DNA of 64,000 nt from Patescibacteria group bacterium (GCA_038064835.1 JBBTSD010000001.1:170361-234360), one strand, 5' to 3'; positions 4,521-52,894 are shown, counted from the first letter of the stretch. The notes: generated by a model from the letters alone, not told the origin. Numbers and translations: made by a program.

Positions 4521-5198
4521 TCAACCGGCTATGGCAAGTGCAAGTACGCGTAACCCTGAGGCCTCGAGGGTTCGGGCCGCTTCGTTCATGGTGGCGCCCG
4601 TGCTCACCACATCATCAATTAAATAGACTGTTTTGTATGGAAAAGGAGTATGCGTAGAAGAAACCGCGAAAGCGTCGGCAATATTTGCATAGCGGGCTTG
4701 TTTTGACAGTGTGGACTGTACCGATGTGTCGCGTGTTCGCACAAGCAAGTGCGCAATAGGCACCTCGGCATCTCGAAGCGCCTGCGACTGTTCCAAAATG
4801 CGATCGATTTGATTCTTGCCGCGCTCTACCAAACGCTTTTCTCCTAATGGTATGGGAACGCAAGCAATCTTTTCACTATATAAATGGTGGCGGTCCGCAA
4901 GTTCTTCATACAAAAAATCGTCGAGGAGACGCGCGAGCAACTGGGCGGCGGCTTCATCTTTATCAAATTTGAGAGCACACACCGCTTCACTGATGTGCGG
5001 GTCTTTGTATGTGCTCAATATAATGACATCTCTGCCTGAGCGCACTTCGGTGCGTATATGCAAGGGAAGTGTGCCTCGGGTACGCACTCGCCCAGCGCGT
5101 GCAGTTGGTGGAAAAAGTGCGTCTGCAAGCAGAGTGTCCACAAGGGTGCACCATCTACGCACATGCGCGGGGAGTTGCATAATGTTGGCATGATACAC
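4521..5198 (-). CDS. comF: ComF-family phosphoribosyltransferase (competence protein ComFC-like)
   Basis: 225 aa. C-terminal PRT motif VYLIDDVVSTGATM. Sits next to the type IV pilus block, as is common for competence loci. Confidence 0.8.
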   Translation of the reverse strand: MYHANIMQLPAHVRRWCTLVDTLLADALFPPTARAGRVRTRGTLPLHIRTEVRSGRDVIILSTYKDPHISEAVCALKFDKDEAAAQLLARLLDDFLYEELADRHHLYSEKIACVPIPLGEKRLVERGKNQIDRILEQSQALRDAEVPIAHLLVRTRDTSVQSTLSKQARYANIADAFAVSSTHTPFPYKTVYLIDDVVSTGATMNEAARTLEASGLRVLALAIAG

Positions 5199-5212
5199 TG
5201 TACATAAATACT

Positions 5213-6364
5213 ATGTCATCATTGGGTAACATGTTTGGGTCGTTGAGCTCCATGCTTTCAGGTAATGGCGGTACCAATAGCGTGTTGGGTATCGATATCG
5301 GATCGTCGTCGATCAAGATTGTGCAGTTGCGCACCAACAAAGAGAGTGCGATTTTGGAAACATACGGAGAAATCGCGCTCGGCCCCTATGCGGGTGTTGC
5401 TGTGGGCAAGGCAACCAAACTTCCTGTAGACAAAACAGCCGAAGCACTGAGGGATTTGATGAAAGAAGCAAATGTGACAGCGGTACACGCTGGCGTCTCT
5501 ATTCCATTTGCATCCAGCCTCATCTCCATGCTGGATCTTCCCAATGTGGATGATGTGCAATTAAAGCGCATGATTCCCATCGAAGCGCGGAAATACATTC
5601 CCATACCTATATCCGAAGTGCTTCTCGATTGGTTTGTGATCCCCGAGAGCGAAAAAGAAGACGACGCCTTTGACCGTGTCGTCAAGGAGGGTGTGATGCA
5701 AAAGAAGGGGCGTGAGGTGCTCTTGGTTGCAATCCATAATGAGGCACTACGCGCATACCAAACCATCATGGAGACGGCTGGAGTCTCGGTGTCGTTCTTC
5801 GAGATTGAAATTTTCAGCACTATCAGGTCGGCATTGGATCGCTCTCCTGTCCCTATTGCGGTGGTAGATATGGGCGCATCCACTACAAAGATTTACATCG
5901 TCGAGAGAGGGGTAGTGCACATGACACATCTTCTAAACATCGGTGCCCAACACATCACTGAATCGCTTGCCCGTGCGATGGGATGGACATTCGAGAAGGC
6001 CGAGCGTATGAAAAGAGAAATAGGACTAACTGATTCTCCCACCTACACGCGTGAGGAAAACGATCGTATCCATCAGACCATCGAGTCAACTTTCAATCGC
6101 ATGTTTACCGAAGTAAATCGCGTGTTGCTGAGCTTTGGCAAACGCTACAATAAAAATGTATCGCATGTGGTGCTTTCTGGCGGCGGTTCGTCCATGCCGA
6201 ATCTCAGCCGTACTGCACAAGACGGCCTTCATGCCGAGCTACAAATCGCACACCCTTTCGGCAAGGTTGAATCTCCGGCATTTCTCGAAGAAGTGTTACG
6301 CACCATTGGTCCTGGGTTTTCAGTCGCCGTTGGTGTGGCCCTGCGGAAACTTTCAGAGAAATAG
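5213..6364 (+). CDS. pilM: type IV pilus assembly ATPase-like protein PilM
   Basis: 383 aa. Actin-like ATPase fold signature VLGIDIGSSSIKIVQL at the N-terminus. First gene of the pil block. Confidence 0.85.
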   Translation: MSSLGNMFGSLSSMLSGNGGTNSVLGIDIGSSSIKIVQLRTNKESAILETYGEIALGPYAGVAVGKATKLPVDKTAEALRDLMKEANVTAVHAGVSIPFASSLISMLDLPNVDDVQLKRMIPIEARKYIPIPISEVLLDWFVIPESEKEDDAFDRVVKEGVMQKKGREVLLVAIHNEALRAYQTIMETAGVSVSFFEIEIFSTIRSALDRSPVPIAVVDMGASTTKIYIVERGVVHMTHLLNIGAQHITESLARAMGWTFEKAERMKREIGLTDSPTYTREENDRIHQTIESTFNRMFTEVNRVLLSFGKRYNKNVSHVVLSGGGSSMPNLSRTAQDGLHAELQIAHPFGKVESPAFLEEVLRTIGPGFSVAVGVALRKLSEK

Positions 6365-6482
6365 GAGTATCTCGTTCGCGGTTATATTTATCCCCTTGTG
6401 TGGATATCTGCATGCGTTTTGTATGGGATACTGTACCCATGTGCGTACGGATGATACCGAATAGCGGTGGCTACTTCACTAC

Positions 6483-7148
6483 ATGGAATCTCAAATAAAA
6501 TCATCGTTCATTCCCCGAGACACCGCACAATATGGCGGCGGTGGTTTTGCACGACACAAAAGCGGTGCATCAGATTTGTTCCTACTTTTCTCCATCGTCA
6601 CACTGGTCGCCTCAGTTGCCTTGGGTGTGGGCGTGTTTCTCTACGAGAAGTTGTTGTCTTCGACATTGACAGGCAAGAAACAGACGCTGGTGCGTGCGCA
6701 GGAGAGTTTCGAACCGACGCTCATAGCCGAAATGAATCGTCTCGATGACAGAATGAGCACGGGTGAGGATCTCCTTGAAAAGCATCTTGCGCCCTCCGTA
6801 CTCTTTCATACATTTGAAGAGCTAACGCTCGATACAGTTTCGCTACGGACACTTGCATACGAAATGACAGAGGGGGGAGAGATAAATCTCAAGCTAAGCG
6901 GACTCGCGCGGAGCGTGAACTCGATTGCGCTTCAGGCTGATTTGTTTGGAAAACATGGCGCCATCATTAGTCCTATATTTTCAAACATAAATCGTACCGA
7001 CGATGGGGTGAAATTCGACATGGTGTCGACGGCAAACCCAGGGAGTATGCGTTACGCAGGGTTGATACGACAGGCAATTGAGCAAGCTCCGGAGCTCCCG
7101 CCGGCAGAGGGTGAGTTGCCAGAGGAAATACCTGGATTTGCGCCATGA
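6483..7148 (+). CDS. pilN: PilN-like pilus assembly protein (single N-terminal TM)
   Basis: 221 aa, one TM helix after a short cytoplasmic N-terminus. Position between pilM and the pilO-like gene. Confidence 0.5.
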   Translation: MESQIKSSFIPRDTAQYGGGGFARHKSGASDLFLLFSIVTLVASVALGVGVFLYEKLLSSTLTGKKQTLVRAQESFEPTLIAEMNRLDDRMSTGEDLLEKHLAPSVLFHTFEELTLDTVSLRTLAYEMTEGGEINLKLSGLARSVNSIALQADLFGKHGAIISPIFSNINRTDDGVKFDMVSTANPGSMRYAGLIRQAIEQAPELPPAEGELPEEIPGFAP

Positions 7149-48362: not shown

Positions 48363-48468
48363 TGGGGGCGTCAGAGGTAACCCCGCACCCCCTGGGTAGG
48401 GAGTCGCTGTGAGAACTTACGCTGGGGGCACTGGAAAGAGCGCCTGATTTTGGTAGAATGCGCCCTAT

Positions 48469-48539
48469 TGCCAGATCGTCTAATGGTAGGACTTCAGATT
48501 CTGGATCTGAATATCTTGGTTCGAGTCCAAGTCTGGCAG
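48469..48539 (+). tRNA. tRNA-Gln (CTG), U1:A72 as typical for bacterial tRNA-Gln
   Basis: Acceptor TGCCAGA/TCTGGCA; D-stem GTCT/GGAC; anticodon stem TCAGA/TCTGA with loop TTCTGGA; T-stem CTTGG/CCAAG with loop TTCGAGT; discriminator G. Confidence 0.8.
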
Positions 48540-48550
48540 CTAATCGTAGT

Positions 48551-48907
48551 ATGCAATCAATCTCACTTGACCTCGCAAAGCAACTTCTCGGCAAAGAAGT
48601 GGAAGTGACGATGGATCGGCCGCTGGGTACTAAACATCCCAAACATGGATTCGTGTATGAGGCCAACTATGGCTTTATCGCGGGCGTAAAGGCTCCCGAT
48701 GGAGAAGATCTGGATGCCTATTATTTGGGAGTGAGTGAGCCACTGGAAAAAGCAAAAGGCGTTTGCATAGCCATTGTTCACCGATTTGATAACGACGATG
48801 ACAAGTTGGTGGTAGTGCCTGCCGGAACGCAACTGACTGATGAGGAGATTCGCTCGCAGGTGCACTTTCAGGAACAGTGGTTTAAGAGTGAAGTTTTGCG
48901 GAAATAA
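48551..48907 (+). CDS. hypothetical protein (faint inorganic-pyrophosphatase-like D-G-E-D-L-D segment), first cassette of the island
   Basis: 118 aa from ATG 48551, immediately after tRNA-Gln. The upstream part of ORF 48458.. overlaps the tRNA and was ignored. Confidence 0.45.
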   Translation: MQSISLDLAKQLLGKEVEVTMDRPLGTKHPKHGFVYEANYGFIAGVKAPDGEDLDAYYLGVSEPLEKAKGVCIAIVHRFDNDDDKLVVVPAGTQLTDEEIRSQVHFQEQWFKSEVLRK

Positions 48908-48908
48908 G

Positions 48909-48938
48909 TTCAATGTCGTCCAAGACAGCCAGCAAGTG
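48909..48938 (+). repeat. island repeat copy 1 (consensus AGTTCCAATGTCGYCCAAGACAGCCAG), directly after a stop codon
   Basis: AGTTCAATGTCGTCCAAGACAGCCAGCAAG begins 2 nt after the stop of gene 48551..48907. Confidence 0.6.
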
Positions 48939-48998
48939 ATTTTAGCCCTACTTCGCAAGTGAACATGGTTCGAGTCCTGAGTTTGTTATAATCTAGAC

Positions 48999-49433
48999 AT
49001 GCGGAAGAATCCTCAAGAATTTGACTGGGGTACGGTTGGACTAAATTTTGGAAACTGGGATGAGAAGAAAATTTGGGCGCTCAACATTCCCGAATCCACG
49101 CTAGATATATCTGAGTTAGAATGGCACTTGGACTGTCCATTTTGGGAAAACGACAGCGGAGTGGAATATTCCGTAACTCCTCGTGAAGTACTAGAAAAAA
49201 TTTCAGGAACAACTAACGAACAAGAAAAAGTCGAAAACGCAGACACTAAGCACCCCATTGATATTTACTTTAACAAGAACAAGTGGCTCGTTCTCGATGG
49301 AATTCACAGGCTTGCAAAACTCTATGCTGCCGGGGCAGAAAGAGTGAGGGTAAGAATTATTACTGCAGACACCCTGCCTCTAGTTTCAACAGGTGAACCC
49401 ATTGAAATGCCAACATGGTGGAATAAGTCTTAG
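48999..49433 (+). CDS. ParB/Srx-fold nuclease-like domain protein (LVLDGIHRLAKL motif)
   Basis: 144 aa. D-G-x-H-R motif in a beta-strand/helix context typical of ParB-like N-terminal domains. AT-rich codon usage relative to the core genome. Confidence 0.5.
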   Translation: MRKNPQEFDWGTVGLNFGNWDEKKIWALNIPESTLDISELEWHLDCPFWENDSGVEYSVTPREVLEKISGTTNEQEKVENADTKHPIDIYFNKNKWLVLDGIHRLAKLYAAGAERVRVRIITADTLPLVSTGEPIEMPTWWNKS

Positions 49434-49439
49434 TCAATA

Positions 49440-49470
49440 AAGTTCCAATGTCGCCCCAAACAGCCAGTTC
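49440..49470 (+). repeat. island repeat copy 2
   Basis: AGTTCCAATGTCGCCCCAAACAGCCAGTTC begins 7 nt after the stop of gene 48999..49433. Its CCAAACAGCC segment can pair with GGCTGTTTTGG about 40 nt downstream (49498-49508). Confidence 0.6.
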
Positions 49471-49557
49471 ATAAAATTCGGCTTAATGGAAAAATGTGAG
49501 GCTGTTTTGGCGTAGAATGCTTTGTATAGCAACAAGAAATAGCTAATCAAGGTATGA

Positions 49558-49875
49558 TTTCAAAAAAAGTGCCCGAAATGCAGCTCTAGTAAGACGAAAA
49601 GGAACGGTCATTTTCGCGGTACACAACGATACAAGTGCCGCGATTGCAGTGCGCAGTTTGTCCACGACACTTCAGTGAGCGCGAAGACGCTCTGGCAGCA
49701 CTTTGCATACGAACATGCGACCGCTCCGGTGTTGGCAAAGCGATATCATAAGAGCGCGCGATGGGTGCGAGACCGGCTCGACGAGTACGAGCTACCAGTG
49801 CGTGTGCCGAATCCTCGTGAGATAGTCGCGGTCGCTGAAGCCACCTGGATCCACGGTTCGTGGATGCTCGTTTAA
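49558..49875 (+). pseudogene. IS1 / IS1595-type transposase N-terminal fragment (zinc ribbon + HTH), truncated, no in-frame start
   Basis: Frame translation reads FQKKCPKCSSSKTKRNGHFRGTQRYKCRDCSAQF... and stops after about 105 aa. The only ATG (49554) is in another frame, across an A7 run (TCAAAAAAAG). Confidence 0.55.
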
Positions 49876-50112
49876 CTCCCTCGACGGCTTTTTCAAGAAG
49901 GTGAAGACGGGCGATCAGCATCCATGCAGGACTGACGCACGCACGCAAATTGAAACTCATTACATCATTATTTTATCCGCTTGCATAGCCTCACATTTTT
50001 CCATTAAGCCTAAAATTCAAAAACCAGCGCATTGCGCTGGTTGTGGCGTAAGTCAGCGGAGAAGTGCTTCGCGAACCTCTCGCCAAGATTGCACCTGTCG
50101 AGGAGGAAAGGT

Positions 50113-50231
50113 GACAGGCAGAATTAAATAGACAATCGCAAGGTATAGCGCTACGCAGAGAATGGGCAGAGAATGGGGACAACAGAGAATGGGGACAGGC
50201 ACAATTAAATAGACAACCGCATGGTATAGCG
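50113..50231. repeat. pair of ~38-bp imperfect direct repeats flanking three tandem AGAGAATGGGGA-like units
   Basis: GACAGGCAGAATTAAATAGACAATCGCAAGGTATAGCG (50113-50150) versus GACAGGCACAATTAAATAGACAACCGCATGGTATAGCG (50194-50231). Between them: CAGAGAATGGG CAGAGAATGGGGA CAACAGAGAATGGGGA. An inverted partial copy TGTCCCCGTTGTCCCC lies at 50376-50392. Confidence 0.55.
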
Positions 50232-50449
50232 TTGCCGTGGGTCGCGTTGCCCGGGTCGATTTTGACGATGCTACTTGGGCGACACAGATGGTCGATACAT
50301 ACCATCTGGATGCGACAGCTCGAAGTCCTGGAAGACCGAAAGCAGATTAGGCATAGAATTAAAAAAGAATTGTGTCTGTCCCCGTTGTCCCCCTACACTT
50401 GTTGTACCCCATTTGCCAATACCCGCCATCCGCGATACTATATTTACAC

Positions 50450-50644
50450 ATGAATAGAAGTGTGTTTAAACAACTCGCCCAGGTAATGGAGCAGGGAGAG
50501 AAAGTGCTTTCAAGCCTGAGTAGCGATCAACGAGAAAAACTCGAAAAATCGTGGGATGTTGAGCATGCCTATTACTCCAGTGCTCTAGAAGGAAGTATGC
50601 TGGACAGGAAGGAGTTCGAGAAGCTTGCACAGGGCGTACATTAA
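50450..50644 (+). CDS. small Fic-antitoxin-like protein carrying the inhibitory S-x-x-x-E-G motif (class I FicA/VbhA-like)
   Basis: 64 aa from ATG 50450. YYSSALEGSMLD matches the (S/T)xxxE(G/N) inhibitory-helix motif. Lies 75 nt upstream of the Fic-domain gene, in a different frame. Confidence 0.5.
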   Translation: MNRSVFKQLAQVMEQGEKVLSSLSSDQREKLEKSWDVEHAYYSSALEGSMLDRKEFEKLAQGVH

Positions 50645-50718
50645 AACAGCATGCCTGTGCGGCCGGAAAACGAGGTGGAGCTACAGAAGCGCGAAGCGGC
50701 CGGCGTTATTCGCGCTTT

Positions 50719-51276
50719 GTGCGCAAGCATGCCCATTCGCGTGCGGATATAACATTGGATACCATTTTGGAAATCCATGCTGAAATATTCAAGGAAGCTT
50801 GGCCGGAGATTGCGGGCAAATACCGAATCGCCCCTGTCGAAATAACCAACTCGAAACACCTCCCGCCGCATCATACGGCGGTTCCGGGCCTTATGCTTGA
50901 ACTGGGAAAGGAGCTTGAAGCGCGATTGCAAACACTTGAGCGCGCAGAGGGTATGGTATCGAAAGTCATGGACACTAGTGACGAACGCTTCGGTACGATT
51001 CTCAGACTCCTACAAATCGCTGCGTGGTTGCACCATAAGATCACCCACATCCATCCGTTTTCGGATGGCAATGGCCGGACGGCGCGTCTGGCCGCGAATC
51101 TCATACTGGAACGATATGGACTTGTTGGGCTTTCAATAAAGGTAGAACGGGAGAACAAAGATCGATACCGTGCTGCATTGGCGCAGATGGATTTACACAG
51201 TGACGACGGGCCTCTCCTTGATCTTATGGTCGAAGGGATCATTGAGCGCTATAGCGGAGTTCCCAAGAAGATATAA
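50719..51276 (+). CDS. Fic/Doc-family protein (Fic motif HPFSDGNGRTARL), toxin partner
   Basis: 185 aa from GTG 50719. Canonical HPFx(D/E)GNGRxxR. Preceded by helices ITLDTILEIHAEIF typical of the Fic core. Confidence 0.8.
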   Translation: MRKHAHSRADITLDTILEIHAEIFKEAWPEIAGKYRIAPVEITNSKHLPPHHTAVPGLMLELGKELEARLQTLERAEGMVSKVMDTSDERFGTILRLLQIAAWLHHKITHIHPFSDGNGRTARLAANLILERYGLVGLSIKVERENKDRYRAALAQMDLHSDDGPLLDLMVEGIIERYSGVPKKI

Positions 51277-51379
51277 CTAGGGAAAAGGACGACCAAGGTG
51301 AGGTGTGAGAATAAACACACCTCTCGACAGCGCGTTCGAATGAAATGTTCCGGCAGAGAACTTTTGCTATACTGCGCAT

Positions 51380-51832
51380 GTGAAAGATGTCGTTCAGAAA
51401 CTTGCGCAAGATATCCTCGACAAGGGATATTTTCTCAGTCTTGCGACGCTTGACGGCGGCGGCTTGTGGGTCAGCGATGTCTTCTATGTTGCCGACGACG
51501 AGTGGAATATCTACTGGCTTTCGGCGCGCGACACTCGCCATTCGAAAGCCGTTGAGCAAAACCCCGAAGTTGCGGGAACAATAACCATAACCACAACACC
51601 ACAAGAGCCCAGTGAAGCACTTCAGATAGCGGGGCGTGCTGAAAGAGTCGGCGAAGAGTCGAACGAAATGGTAGAGAAGCTCTTTCTGCAAAAACGCGGC
51701 AAGGAAAAGAAAACCGAAGCAGGTAGAAACAAAGAAAGCCAATCGTGGTACAAACTCACCCCCACAAAGATACGACTGTCACACCAGGAGACATTTAACC
51801 TAGAGAAGCAGGATGTTGCTGTTAAGGGATAA
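51380..51832 (+). CDS. pyridoxamine 5'-phosphate oxidase-like (general stress protein 26-type) FMN-binding split-barrel protein
   Basis: 150 aa. LATLDGGGLWVSDVFYVADD...IYWLSARDTRHSKAVEQNPEVAG pattern of the PNPOx-like family. Confidence 0.65.
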   Translation: MKDVVQKLAQDILDKGYFLSLATLDGGGLWVSDVFYVADDEWNIYWLSARDTRHSKAVEQNPEVAGTITITTTPQEPSEALQIAGRAERVGEESNEMVEKLFLQKRGKEKKTEAGRNKESQSWYKLTPTKIRLSHQETFNLEKQDVAVKG

Positions 51833-51834
51833 AT

Positions 51835-51864
51835 TAGTTCCAACATCACCCAAGACAGCCAGAC
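51835..51864 (+). repeat. island repeat copy 3
   Basis: AGTTCCAACATCACCCAAGACAGCCAGACA begins 3 nt after the stop of gene 51380..51832. Confidence 0.55.
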
Positions 51865-51932
51865 AACCTGAGGCGTGCCCACGCTGCGCGGGCTTTCTTC
51901 ATATAGTTCGCTTGCTGGGTTAAGATGGAGTT

Positions 51933-52304
51933 ATGAAGGTCACAAGTGCCGCGACGCTCAAACGAGTGTATGGGATGATTTTTTCACGAATATACCCGCT
52001 GTACATTGCCAAGGCAGAGAAAAAAGGACGCACGAAAGCAGAAGTCGACGACATTATTCAGTGGCTCACAGGATACAGTCAGAAAAAATTGGAAACACAG
52101 CTGAGGAAGCAGGTCGATATCGAGACCTTCTTTGCAGAAGCGCCCCGAATGAATCCTTTGCGCACCCTGGTCAGGGGTCTCATCTGCGGTGTTCGGGTGG
52201 AAAATATCAAAGAACCGACCATGCGAGAAATCCGTTACCTGGATAAATTAATCGACGAGTTGGCGCAGGGAAAGTCGATGGAAAAGATTTTACGGAAACA
52301 GTAA
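51933..52304 (+). CDS. DUF2200-family protein
   Basis: 123 aa. [31 protein letters not shown]...[23 protein letters not shown] resembles DUF2200 members (from recall). Confidence 0.55.
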
Positions 52305-52365
52305 GCTTCGAGCATCGGTTCCACCTTCATTCTAAATACAAAATTATCGAGTATACTTACATTCT

Positions 52366-52704
52366 ATGAAATTCCTTGTCACATACCAGATGCCGCACGC
52401 AGGACTCGACGATTGGCAAAAGATACCTGAGGCCGAACGAAAAACCCAAGAGGCGCACATGCAATCCGAGTGGGAATCTTGGATGGCGCAGCACAAAGAA
52501 TCTATTACCGAAACTGCCGGTATTGGAAAGCCAAAGCGCATTACCTCTGAGGGCATTGAGGACTCGCGCAACGATATTATGATGTATTCGTTTGTAGAGG
52601 CTGAATCATTGGAAGCAGCTGCAGACATATTTAGGAGTCACCCACATTTTGGTATTCCCGGTGGGTGGATAGAAGTCATGTCCGTAAACAAGAACATTGG
52701 CTAA
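52366..52704 (+). CDS. hypothetical small protein
   Basis: 112 aa, no motif. Its stop codon overlaps the first base of the palindromic element. Confidence 0.45.
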   Translation: MKFLVTYQMPHAGLDDWQKIPEAERKTQEAHMQSEWESWMAQHKESITETAGIGKPKRITSEGIEDSRNDIMMYSFVEAESLEAAADIFRSHPHFGIPGGWIEVMSVNKNIG

Positions 52705-52868
52705 GTAACTGTTCATAATCTCGTGGTACCCAATCTGAAAAATGCAGGTTTTGTGCGAAAAACAAGGCGGAGGCCGAAATGATGCAAAAGCGTCATTGAG
52801 GTCGAGCCGCGGTTTTGCAGCCAAAACCCGGCATTTTTCAGATAGGGGGAAGATTATGAACAGTTACT
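52704..52868. mobile_element. 165-bp imperfect palindrome with 17-bp perfect terminal inverted repeats (MITE-like element or giant bidirectional terminator)
   Basis: AGTAACTGTTCATAATC (52704-52720) versus GATTATGAACAGTTACT (52852-52868). Nested inverted pairs CTGAAAAATGC/GCATTTTTCAG and GGTTTTG/CAAAACC. Sits between convergent genes. Confidence 0.5.
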
Positions 52869-52894
52869 AAGGGCTCGTCTGTAAAGTCGCGCTG

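Follow-up and report, generated by a model that had tools for sequence, protein, structure and literature searches.

Organisation of the tRNA-Gln locus

We analysed a stretch of 64,000 nucleotides from a Patescibacteria group bacterium (GCA_038064835.1 JBBTSD010000001.1:170361-234360), referred to throughout as the window, in which a tRNA-Gln gene is followed on the same strand by three gene modules, each closed by a copy of one short repeat (the motif). Our reading, to which we assign a probability of roughly 0.65, is that the motif is the attP-type left half-site of integrative elements that are specific for tRNA-Gln and driven by a large serine recombinase (LSR), and that the window holds an integrase-less, partly decayed array of cassettes. 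The demonstrable array extends over 48541-51862 (positions counted from the first nucleotide of the window), and its parts are listed here.

48469-48540, + strand: tRNA-Gln(CTG), the array anchor (ARAGORN and Rfam), directly upstream of the array and co-oriented with it
48519-48539, + strand: putative attB-type left half-site, the last 21 nt of tRNA-Gln, GTTCGAGTCCAAGTCTGGC plus AG (from half-site alignment with the motif; in relatives a recombinase gene abuts the same end)
48538-48539, + strand: putative crossover dinucleotide AG
48541-48932, + strand: cassette 1, a PPase-like open reading frame (ORF; 48551-48907, 118 aa) followed by motif copy 1
48933-49467, + strand: cassette 2, with a 5' module (48933-48998), a ParB-fold ORF (48999-49433) and motif copy 2 (49442-49467)
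49468-51862, + strand: cassette 3, a multi-gene module split by an insertion sequence (IS) remnant and closed by motif copy 3 (51837-51862)
Contents of cassette 3, + strand: repeat-rich leader (50020-50446), small Fic partner (50447-50644), Fic (50719-51276) and PNPOx-like gene (51380-51832)
49480-50010, + strand: IS1-like remnant of 531 bp with 23-bp perfect inverted repeats and an 8-bp target duplication
51873-51898, + strand: terminator-like hairpin and T-run directly behind the last motif, an order (last motif, then terminator) seen in many loci

The initial annotation had described three repeats after stop codons behind tRNA-Gln, and this was borne out. The copies, 25-26 nt long, lie at 48908-48932, 49442-49467 and 51837-51862, all on the + strand, and start 0, 8 and 4 nt past the stops of the PPase-like, ParB-like and PNPOx-like + strand ORFs, respectively. 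Their common pattern, with up to three mismatches allowed, matched three times in the window and not once in 100 shuffles, and a position-weight scan of both strands over the full 64 kb returned just these three copies at 30-38 bits, against a maximum of 10.6 bits in shuffled windows. Canonical copies from other genomes score 45-54 bits; copy 1 is a variant with a 1-nt deletion in its distal block (GTTC-AATG).

The PPase-like ORF of cassette 1 begins 10 nt past the tRNA and is without a promoter of its own. Cassette 2 is a complete promoter-gene-site unit, in which the 5' module holds an extended -10, TGTTATAAT (48984-48992), and the T-loop-like GGTTCGAGTCC (48969-48979), the T-arm-like piece already reported behind copy 1; its ParB-fold gene has no match in Pfam. 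The earlier Fic, PNPOx and DUF2200 calls were confirmed by Pfam. The description of the locus as a low-GC island did not hold, with a GC content of 0.481-0.485 against 0.492 for the whole window and a lower value (0.43) for the ParB-like gene alone, and we therefore reject a low-GC or codon-shift island on this comparison of composition. Eight assemblies carry the identical arrangement, among them CAYHZP010000001.1 (GCA_964361175.1), a groundwater-type Patescibacteria metagenome-assembled genome (MAG), and all eight contigs of the window's species are the same here.

The motif recurs behind tRNA-Gln across Paceibacteria

We then scanned a degenerate form of the motif, with 19 fixed bases required, over 185,579 species represented by one genome each. 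This yielded 114 stretches, of which 102 are Patescibacteria tiles (in most cases labelled Paceibacteria or Parcubacteria) that contain 128 strict copies; about a dozen matches are chance occurrences inside genes of other phyla. The motif core reads AAAA-GTTCYAACATCGTCCCAGACAGCCAG-CAA and the consensus A-AAAA-GTTC[C/T]AACATCGTCCCAGACAGCCAG-CAA, and conservation is 78-92% even at positions that were free in the pattern. Degenerate copies vary mainly in their last 8 nt.

Among the 45 tRNAs in the 102 tiles, 31 are tRNA-Gln (CTG or TTG), and each of the 31 precedes a motif on the same strand. Of the 128 copies, 54 have the end of an ORF (50 codons or longer) no more than 10 nt upstream, and 72 no more than 30 nt upstream. 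The 77 ORFs whose stop lies within 40 nt upstream of a motif group into 74 blastp clusters; their median length is 149 aa, and they encode HAD hydrolases, methyltransferases, GNAT, NUDIX, HIT, HD, MBL-fold and Imm5-like proteins, toxin-antitoxin pairs and others. The motif is found at few loci per genome; in CAYMNZ010000001.1 (528 kb) strict copies are limited to three regions (four 8-kb tiles), of which two contain tRNA-Gln genes, and in CAYGLK010000002.1 the array behind a tRNA-Gln gene holds 10 copies or more over at least 13.5 kb (adjacent tiles L027 and L081; loci fetched from other assemblies are denoted by L numbers). No copy was present in the viral contigs of IMG/VR, on which ground a phage att site was rejected, and no Rfam family matches the motif at gathering score or at E <= 1.

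Three genomes deserve separate mention. The contig of the closest relative of the window's flank (84% DoxX; L123) stops 64 nt past DoxX. In a more distant relative (63% DoxX; L124 and L125) the locus is rearranged and has no motif copy; at L124 14843-18498 the tRNA-Gln lies beside LAGLIDADG-like and GIY-YIG genes, followed by cassette-like NADAR and MazG-like genes. OZ223206.1 (906 kb), labelled 'Parvibaculum chromosome 2', contains Paceibacteria-type motifs and serine recombinases (L055, L068 and L087, at 816-840 kb), and is therefore probably a genome of the candidate phyla radiation (CPR).

Cassettes are shuffled as units

Breakpoints in these arrays all lie immediately past ...CAG|C, and the same downstream sequences can follow either the 3' end of tRNA-Gln or a motif (L027 versus L081 and L131; within L059; L112 and L021 versus L100). 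Thus the module CAACACAATTTAGCTATATTTAGCAAC...GGTTCGAGTC...TTTGATATACT stands behind the intact tRNA in L027 and behind motif copies in L081, L131, L064 and others; in L059 a 26-nt segment with a partial tRNA stands behind both the tRNA and a motif; and the native terminator flank lies behind the tRNA in L112 and L021 and behind a motif in L100. Copy 1 of the window carries the CAACACAATTTAGCTATATTTAGCAAC...TTTGATATACT module, which explains the T-arm-like piece at 48969-48979; the extended -10 of the ParB-like gene also comes from this module.

Cassettes have tight left edges, with TTGACA or an extended -10 located 2-10 nt past the junction. The sequence 3' of the motif is heterogeneous and consists of terminators (behind 40 of 252 copies), TTGACA promoters, the tRNA-flank module, stubs like the right-hand arm of attP (P'), or unrelated sequence. 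Because a cassette's own terminator, where present, precedes the motif, and the terminator past the last motif belongs to the flank, the site acts at the DNA level, at the cassette boundary.

A metagenome search with the ParB-like protein of the window identified homologues with 62-68% identity. The gene occurs in motif arrays L129, L131, L132 and L133, with the motif 10-20 nt past its stop; a co-oriented tRNA-Gln lies upstream in L129, L131 and L132, and none is present in the fetched part of L133. Homology between these cassettes and the window is limited to gene and motif (49009-49468), and the neighbours differ in every array. Synteny and vertical conservation of the island genes, which the initial annotation had named as grounds for abandoning a cassette model, are therefore not what we observe, since the ParB-like cassette sits among different neighbours in four other arrays. 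Across the five ParB-like cassettes, whose genes share about 66-80% nucleotide identity, 18 of 26 motif columns are invariant, as against no column downstream; the motif is thus under constraint even in arrays that lack a recombinase. In addition, L129 and L133 have in common motif-bounded cassettes that are 88-91% identical and are separated by differing numbers of other cassettes. The earlier proposal of a cassette-like array at a tRNA, with the repeat as its recombination site, thus gains support from recurrent, shuffled cassettes in relatives.

The spacers past the motifs of L129 and L133 (e.g. L133 2576-2620) often read CATGCAATAATTCACCCCTTTTGGGGTG + TTTT + GGTATACT, like the P' arm CATTGAGGTTAAATCACCATTTTTAGGTGC, so that some cassette boundaries resemble near-complete attP sites; the same P'-like spacer also serves as a terminator plus -10. 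An inverted fragment like the tRNA-Gln 3' end, ..GCTAGCCAGACAGGGAATCGAAC, recurs in L029, L108, L119, L129 (past 2964-2989) and L133 (three copies). It lies past the last motif and terminator hairpin, with B-type spacing on the opposite strand, and may represent a right-hand boundary site. In two k141 contigs of MAG JBGSSW01 (L016 1-140 and L091 1-140), a gene end, the motif and CA are common to both before the sequences diverge; this fork of the assembly graph exactly at the site suggests that the population is polymorphic for cassettes. In relatives, too, tRNA-Gln tends to be where contigs break (L123, L141, L142).

Large serine recombinase elements end at tRNA-Gln and at the motif

We detected a recombinase linked to these arrays by a Pfam scan of the large ORFs inside them, followed by six-frame phmmer searches, Hin being too distant as a query. 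In L064, a rolling-circle Rep (PF23343) lies beside a 496-aa LSR with Resolvase, Recombinase and Zn-ribbon domains, and the 3' end of the LSR gene overlaps the tRNA-Gln on the opposite strand. The family counts more than 3,800 proteins at E < 1e-30, with named members from Pacebacteria, Parcubacteria and Campbellbacteria. In all seven contexts (L064, L136, L137, L138, L139/L140, L141 and L142) the 3' end of the LSR gene is placed on a complete or partial tRNA-Gln 3' end, and all five contigs that reach far enough have a motif at the far end, 3.3-5.9 kb away and in the orientation of the tRNA. A Rep gene accompanies the LSR in five of the seven (L064, L137, L139, L141 and L142). The housekeeping genes that flank the elements are RF-1, ABC, FtsX and pyrG, as in the window, or dnaX/His_Phos.

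The span in L137 includes two cargo genes between the full tRNA and the element. Here a partial tRNA-Gln 3' end, GGGTTCGAGTCCTCGTCCGGCAG (reverse complement 5095-5125), precedes the recombinase gene, and the full tRNA-Gln lies 1.3 kb upstream of the partial copy with NUDIX and hydrolase genes between them, which implies that the half-site at the end of some cassettes is of the B type instead of the P type. L087 has a full-length LSR ORF (4768-6507) that contains the motif and, directly behind it, P'-like sequence. On sequence grounds this appears to be an intact attP, and its position within the ORF means that integration would replace the C-terminal tail of the protein. The 3.4-kb recombinase contigs L141 and L142 were considered as circles and rejected, as their termini do not overlap and each ends in tRNA-Gln, which identifies them as integrated copies. 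In L100 a LOOT RNA (RF03000, 66 bits; 1694-1802) lies between a serine recombinase gene and the motif array.

Queries with XerD and lambda Int (phmmer against six-frame ORFs; approximate queries of limited sensitivity) found no tyrosine recombinase in the Patescibacteria loci L009-L135 or in the window. Two Phage_integrase genes are present in L138, 4.6 and 6.5 kb from the element and beyond housekeeping genes.

The motif and the tRNA-Gln end differ by an attP-attB-like register shift

We compared the motif and the tRNA-Gln 3' end as half-sites, with positions counted outward from the dinucleotide AG (A72-G73 of the tRNA).

Motif (P): distal GTTCCAACA; insert TCGTC; proximal CCAGACAGCC; centre AG
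tRNA-Gln consensus (B, n = 42): distal GTTCGAgTC; no insert; proximal CctGTCcggC; centre AG

In the motif, the distal block covers positions 16-24, compared with 11-19 in the tRNA-Gln end, an outward shift of exactly 5 bp, and GTTCNA accordingly falls at positions 19-24 in the former and 14-19 in the latter; the GTC... region (positions 13-1) stays in register. In A118-type serine integrases, the motif bound by the zinc-ribbon domain (ZD) lies at positions 16-24 in attP and 11-19 in attB half-sites, and the proximal domain binds the same place in both (PMC3783163). The ZD shift of LSR attachment sites is therefore reproduced here by the left half-sites alone. The central dinucleotide is AG in all site types; L138 has AA in both the tRNA end and the motif. 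Given the 5-bp register shift and the common centre, we suggest that the motif would consist of a P arm (24 nt) plus the crossover dinucleotide, and the tRNA-Gln end of a B arm (19 nt) plus AG.

Two other readings of the resemblance to tRNA were rejected. As a degenerate or permuted tRNA, or as a partner pairing with the 5' strand of tRNA-Gln, the motif fails because a T-stem cannot form and because it is constant while acceptor stems vary. A dif/Xer-type site was dismissed on inspection, since the arms are not inverted.

A model for array growth and the evidence against it

In the mechanism that we propose, autonomous elements of 3.3-5.9 kb from tRNA end to motif, carrying an LSR, often a rolling-circle Rep and few cargo genes, would insert exactly at the 3' end of tRNA-Gln, leaving the tRNA end abutting the recombinase gene (attL) and the motif closing the far end (attR). 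An integrated element would excise with any downstream P site and so pick up cassettes; having re-integrated, it would excise with the nearest P site and so drop them. The tRNA end together with any right flank would stay usable as a target. The modules in the window, each an optional promoter, one or more genes and a P half-site, would then be three such units stacked 3' of tRNA-Gln. Growth of the arrays by this route of excision and re-integration fits their anatomy, and we infer from it the movement of single cassettes.

A broader proposal, which we advance tentatively and regard as possible rather than probable, is that Paceibacteria have built an integron-like function on an LSR, in which a Rep-bearing shuttle of 3-6 kb at tRNA-Gln moves self-expressed single-gene cassettes via alternative P half-sites. 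If this is true, a cassette pool would be common to a whole class of ultra-small, host-dependent bacteria, and the enzyme would act on one-sided sites, a property not described for serine integrases.

Several observations weigh against the attP half-site reading. The half-sites are without the dyad symmetry usual for serine integrases, as P matches the reverse-complemented P' at 2-8 of 24 positions and B matches the right flank at 3 of 19. P' is conserved, but it also encodes the C-terminus of the recombinase; the right side of the motif is otherwise highly variable, so that most copies are lone half-sites. Textbook serine integrases strictly recombine a complete attP with a complete attB, and lone half-sites are not recombined. 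Repeated insertion at one tRNA and the movement of single cassettes thus need a relaxed requirement for the right half, or another route. Part of the 5-bp-shift signal comes from GTTCRA, which is common to all tRNA T-loops, and other tRNAs match 4.0-6.0 of the 9 positions of the block against 5.3 for tRNA-Gln. The 19 fixed bases of the scan inflate the apparent conservation of the motif, a bias from which L129-L133, found by protein search, are free. Finally, an LSR homologue was absent from the 64-kb window (six-frame phmmer), and neither a circular cassette nor an empty and occupied pair within one species was seen.

Alternative explanations

The main rival is that the motifs are inert scars, each of them the attR of a separate full-element integration whose interior was later deleted, leaving cassettes that do not move. 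We consider this unlikely, while acknowledging what it captures well: in most copies unrelated sequence follows the P arm, so that the attachment site is incomplete, serine integrases normally require both half-sites, and the copies in the window are degenerate and identical in eight assemblies. Random deletions, however, would not be expected to give the tight left edges of the cassettes, with a TTGACA or extended -10 2-10 nt past the junction. Nor do inert scars fit a motif that stays conserved where its flanks are saturated, or the recurrence of the same cassettes in other orders and with other neighbours; and re-integration at the same tRNA would still require a regenerated target.

The motif and tRNA-Gln might instead serve as portable homology, that is, as short anchors for RecA-dependent exchange after DNA uptake, with no dedicated recombinase. 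The minimal mobile elements of Neisseria are a comparable case, DNA uptake is presumed for CPR bacteria, the conserved stretch of about 33 nt comes close to the shortest length that supports homologous recombination, and recombinase-less arrays are the majority. This reading strikes us as quite improbable, for it leaves unexplained the precise, 5-bp-shifted mimicry of the tRNA-Gln end, the recombinase elements that end in the motif and the breakpoints at one dinucleotide.

The initial annotation had offered a family of repeats like repetitive extragenic palindromic (REP) or terminator elements as its alternative, and a role at the RNA level (3'-untranslated-region stability, processing or a tRNA-like tag) might be suspected from the position of the motif just past stops, its resemblance to a tRNA 3' end and the terminators behind 40 of 252 copies. 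We judge it highly improbable. The motif is confined to arrays linked to tRNA-Gln, at few loci per genome, with the tRNA upstream and co-oriented in 31 of 31 cases; in the window its three copies in 64 kb are clustered within 3 kb. It forms no hairpin, has no Rfam family match and does not covary with the variable acceptor stems of tRNA-Gln. Moreover, it stands before or after terminators; a terminator that belongs to the cassette comes ahead of the motif, which would thus often escape transcription.

A comparison with integron attC sites had been drawn from the possible pairing of copy 2 with a complement, GGCTGTTTTGG, downstream of it. This sole complement sits in the left inverted repeat and interior of the IS1-like remnant (49480-50010), which was inserted 12 nt past motif copy 2 and is flanked by the target duplication TAAAATTC (49472-49479 and 50011-50018); it was therefore not there before the IS. 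The remnant encodes an InsA-type Zn-ribbon transposase N-terminus that is frameshifted in an A-run, with a truncated ORF, and is a later arrival outside the cassette system. Copies 1 and 3 with their flanks fold no better than shuffles as single-stranded DNA on either strand (z = +0.99, +0.28, +1.18 and -0.21). To an integron proper, with attC-like imperfect palindromes that form single-stranded hairpins with extrahelical bases and an IntI-type tyrosine recombinase encoded elsewhere, we give next to no credence: co-oriented small genes, a repeat at each stop, toxin-antitoxin and small-enzyme cargo and arrays of at least 10 copies do recall one, but the site is conserved in sequence and not in structure, is not palindromic, and forms one 26-nt block with no inverted partner conserved downstream and no R'' (RYYYAAC) and R' (GTTRRRY) inverted cores, while promoters are supplied by the cassettes themselves, the enzyme physically linked to the site is of the serine type, and tyrosine recombinases were missing from the Patescibacteria loci L009-L135 and from the window, with a distant pair in L138.

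State of the window array and neighbouring features

The window array looks old and is possibly inactive. It looks old because its motif copies score 30-38 bits as against 45-54 bits, because an IS has inserted into it and because eight assemblies carry it unchanged; inactivity is suggested by the lack of a recombinase in the 64 kb, by the low-scoring sites and by the deletion in one distal block. Within cassette 3, the leader upstream of the Fic partner (50020-50446) is non-coding and includes two 45-nt direct repeats (50106-50150 and 50187-50231), GAATGGGGACA repeats whose inverted partner lies at 50379-50399, and, on the minus strand, a terminator-like hairpin at 50022-50042; it has no counterpart in the other loci.

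On the distal side, the hairpin at 51873-51898 is probably the displaced native terminator of tRNA-Gln, and marks the edge of the demonstrable array. The remaining features around the array are as follows.

48432-48459: promoter-like site upstream of tRNA-Gln
51933-52304, + strand: DUF2200 gene (Pfam), no motif behind it
52366-52704, + strand: orphan gene, no motif behind it
52701-52871: near-perfect palindrome of 171 nt between the convergent orphan and DUF389 genes (RNA minimum free energy -91 kcal/mol, z = -11)

The DUF2200 and orphan genes had been counted among the array genes; neither is followed by a motif, and they are at most putative members. In L072, homologues of both adjoin the end of an array in a different orientation. 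The palindrome said to end the island is real, measuring 171 nt and not 165, and is at most a putative end of the array; it is present as a single copy in the window and in none of the fetched loci, and has no credible match in Rfam.

Significance

Little is known of gene exchange in CPR/Patescibacteria, whose genomes are smaller than 1 Mb. On the attP half-site reading, one conserved hot spot (the tRNA-Gln 3' end), one 26-nt site and one recombinase family would account for variable accessory arrays in at least 100 species-level genomes. Should the cassettes be mobilised in trans, this would be an independently arisen form of integron-like gene capture, based on serine-recombinase chemistry, and a serine integrase that acts on one-sided sites would be relevant to genome engineering, in which targeting is constrained by the requirement that both half-sites be specified. 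The motif also provides a simple marker for flexible gene content in Paceibacteria assemblies, and arrays of it would explain why contigs in these assemblies frequently break at tRNA-Gln.

Comparison with known systems

The attachment sites of LSRs such as A118/LI, Bxb1 and phiC31 are the closest in molecular detail. The Resolvase, Recombinase and Zn-ribbon domains of these enzymes are present in L064 and L136-L142 and not in the window, and the sites agree in a P half-site of 24 nt, a B half-site of about 19 nt, the 5-bp distal shift, the common central dinucleotide and the position of attP at the 3' end of the int gene. Here, however, a tRNA gene is targeted at its 3' end, the half-sites are without dyad symmetry, most copies are lone P half-sites that end single-gene modules, and the carrier is a Rep-bearing CPR element of 3-6 kb instead of a phage.

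In layout, the arrays are similar to the staphylococcal cassette chromosome (SCC) islands at rlmH (orfX), where the Ccr large serine recombinases insert elements into a conserved gene at its 3' end, direct repeats of the integration site stand between tandem elements, and mobilisation in trans extends to pseudo-SCC elements that have no recombinase. An SCC element has many genes and a length of tens of kb, in contrast to the single-gene units of 0.4-1.3 kb seen here, and differs in host phylum, target and site sequence.

With integrons and clusters of attC sites lacking integron-integrases (CALINs), the arrays have in common small co-oriented cassettes, a recombination site just past the stop, a cargo of small enzymes and toxin-antitoxin pairs, and the lack of a linked recombinase in most arrays; where one does occur, it is encoded on the other strand from the cassettes. 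They differ in a site that is non-folding and conserved in sequence, in the serine recombinase, in a tRNA anchor in place of attI, and in cassettes that usually carry their own promoter and sometimes a terminator. The short repeats past genes also recall REP elements and bacterial interspersed mosaic elements (BIMEs), but are not palindromic, not genome-wide and strictly linked to tRNA-Gln.

Finally, the tycheposons of Prochlorococcus, a minority of which use large serine recombinases (10.1101/2020.12.28.424599), likewise integrate at specific tRNAs and accumulate beside them, with partial tRNA copies such as we find in L059, L040 and L137. The repeated site in Paceibacteria is a class-wide conserved variant of the tRNA end in the attP register rather than a host copy, and the cassettes are of single genes, whereas tycheposons are multi-kb elements with integration and replication modules. 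As in tRNA-seeded additive islands, the array begins at a tRNA 3' end, and elements with an integrase are tRNA-proximal in some genomes. Searches of the literature for the motif sequence, for Patescibacteria integrons or cassettes, and for serine recombinases with tRNA returned no description of such a system. It seems reasonable to suggest that the system, with a mechanism that is in part inferred, is an apparently undescribed combination of serine-integrase integration, a tRNA-seeded island and an integron-like array.

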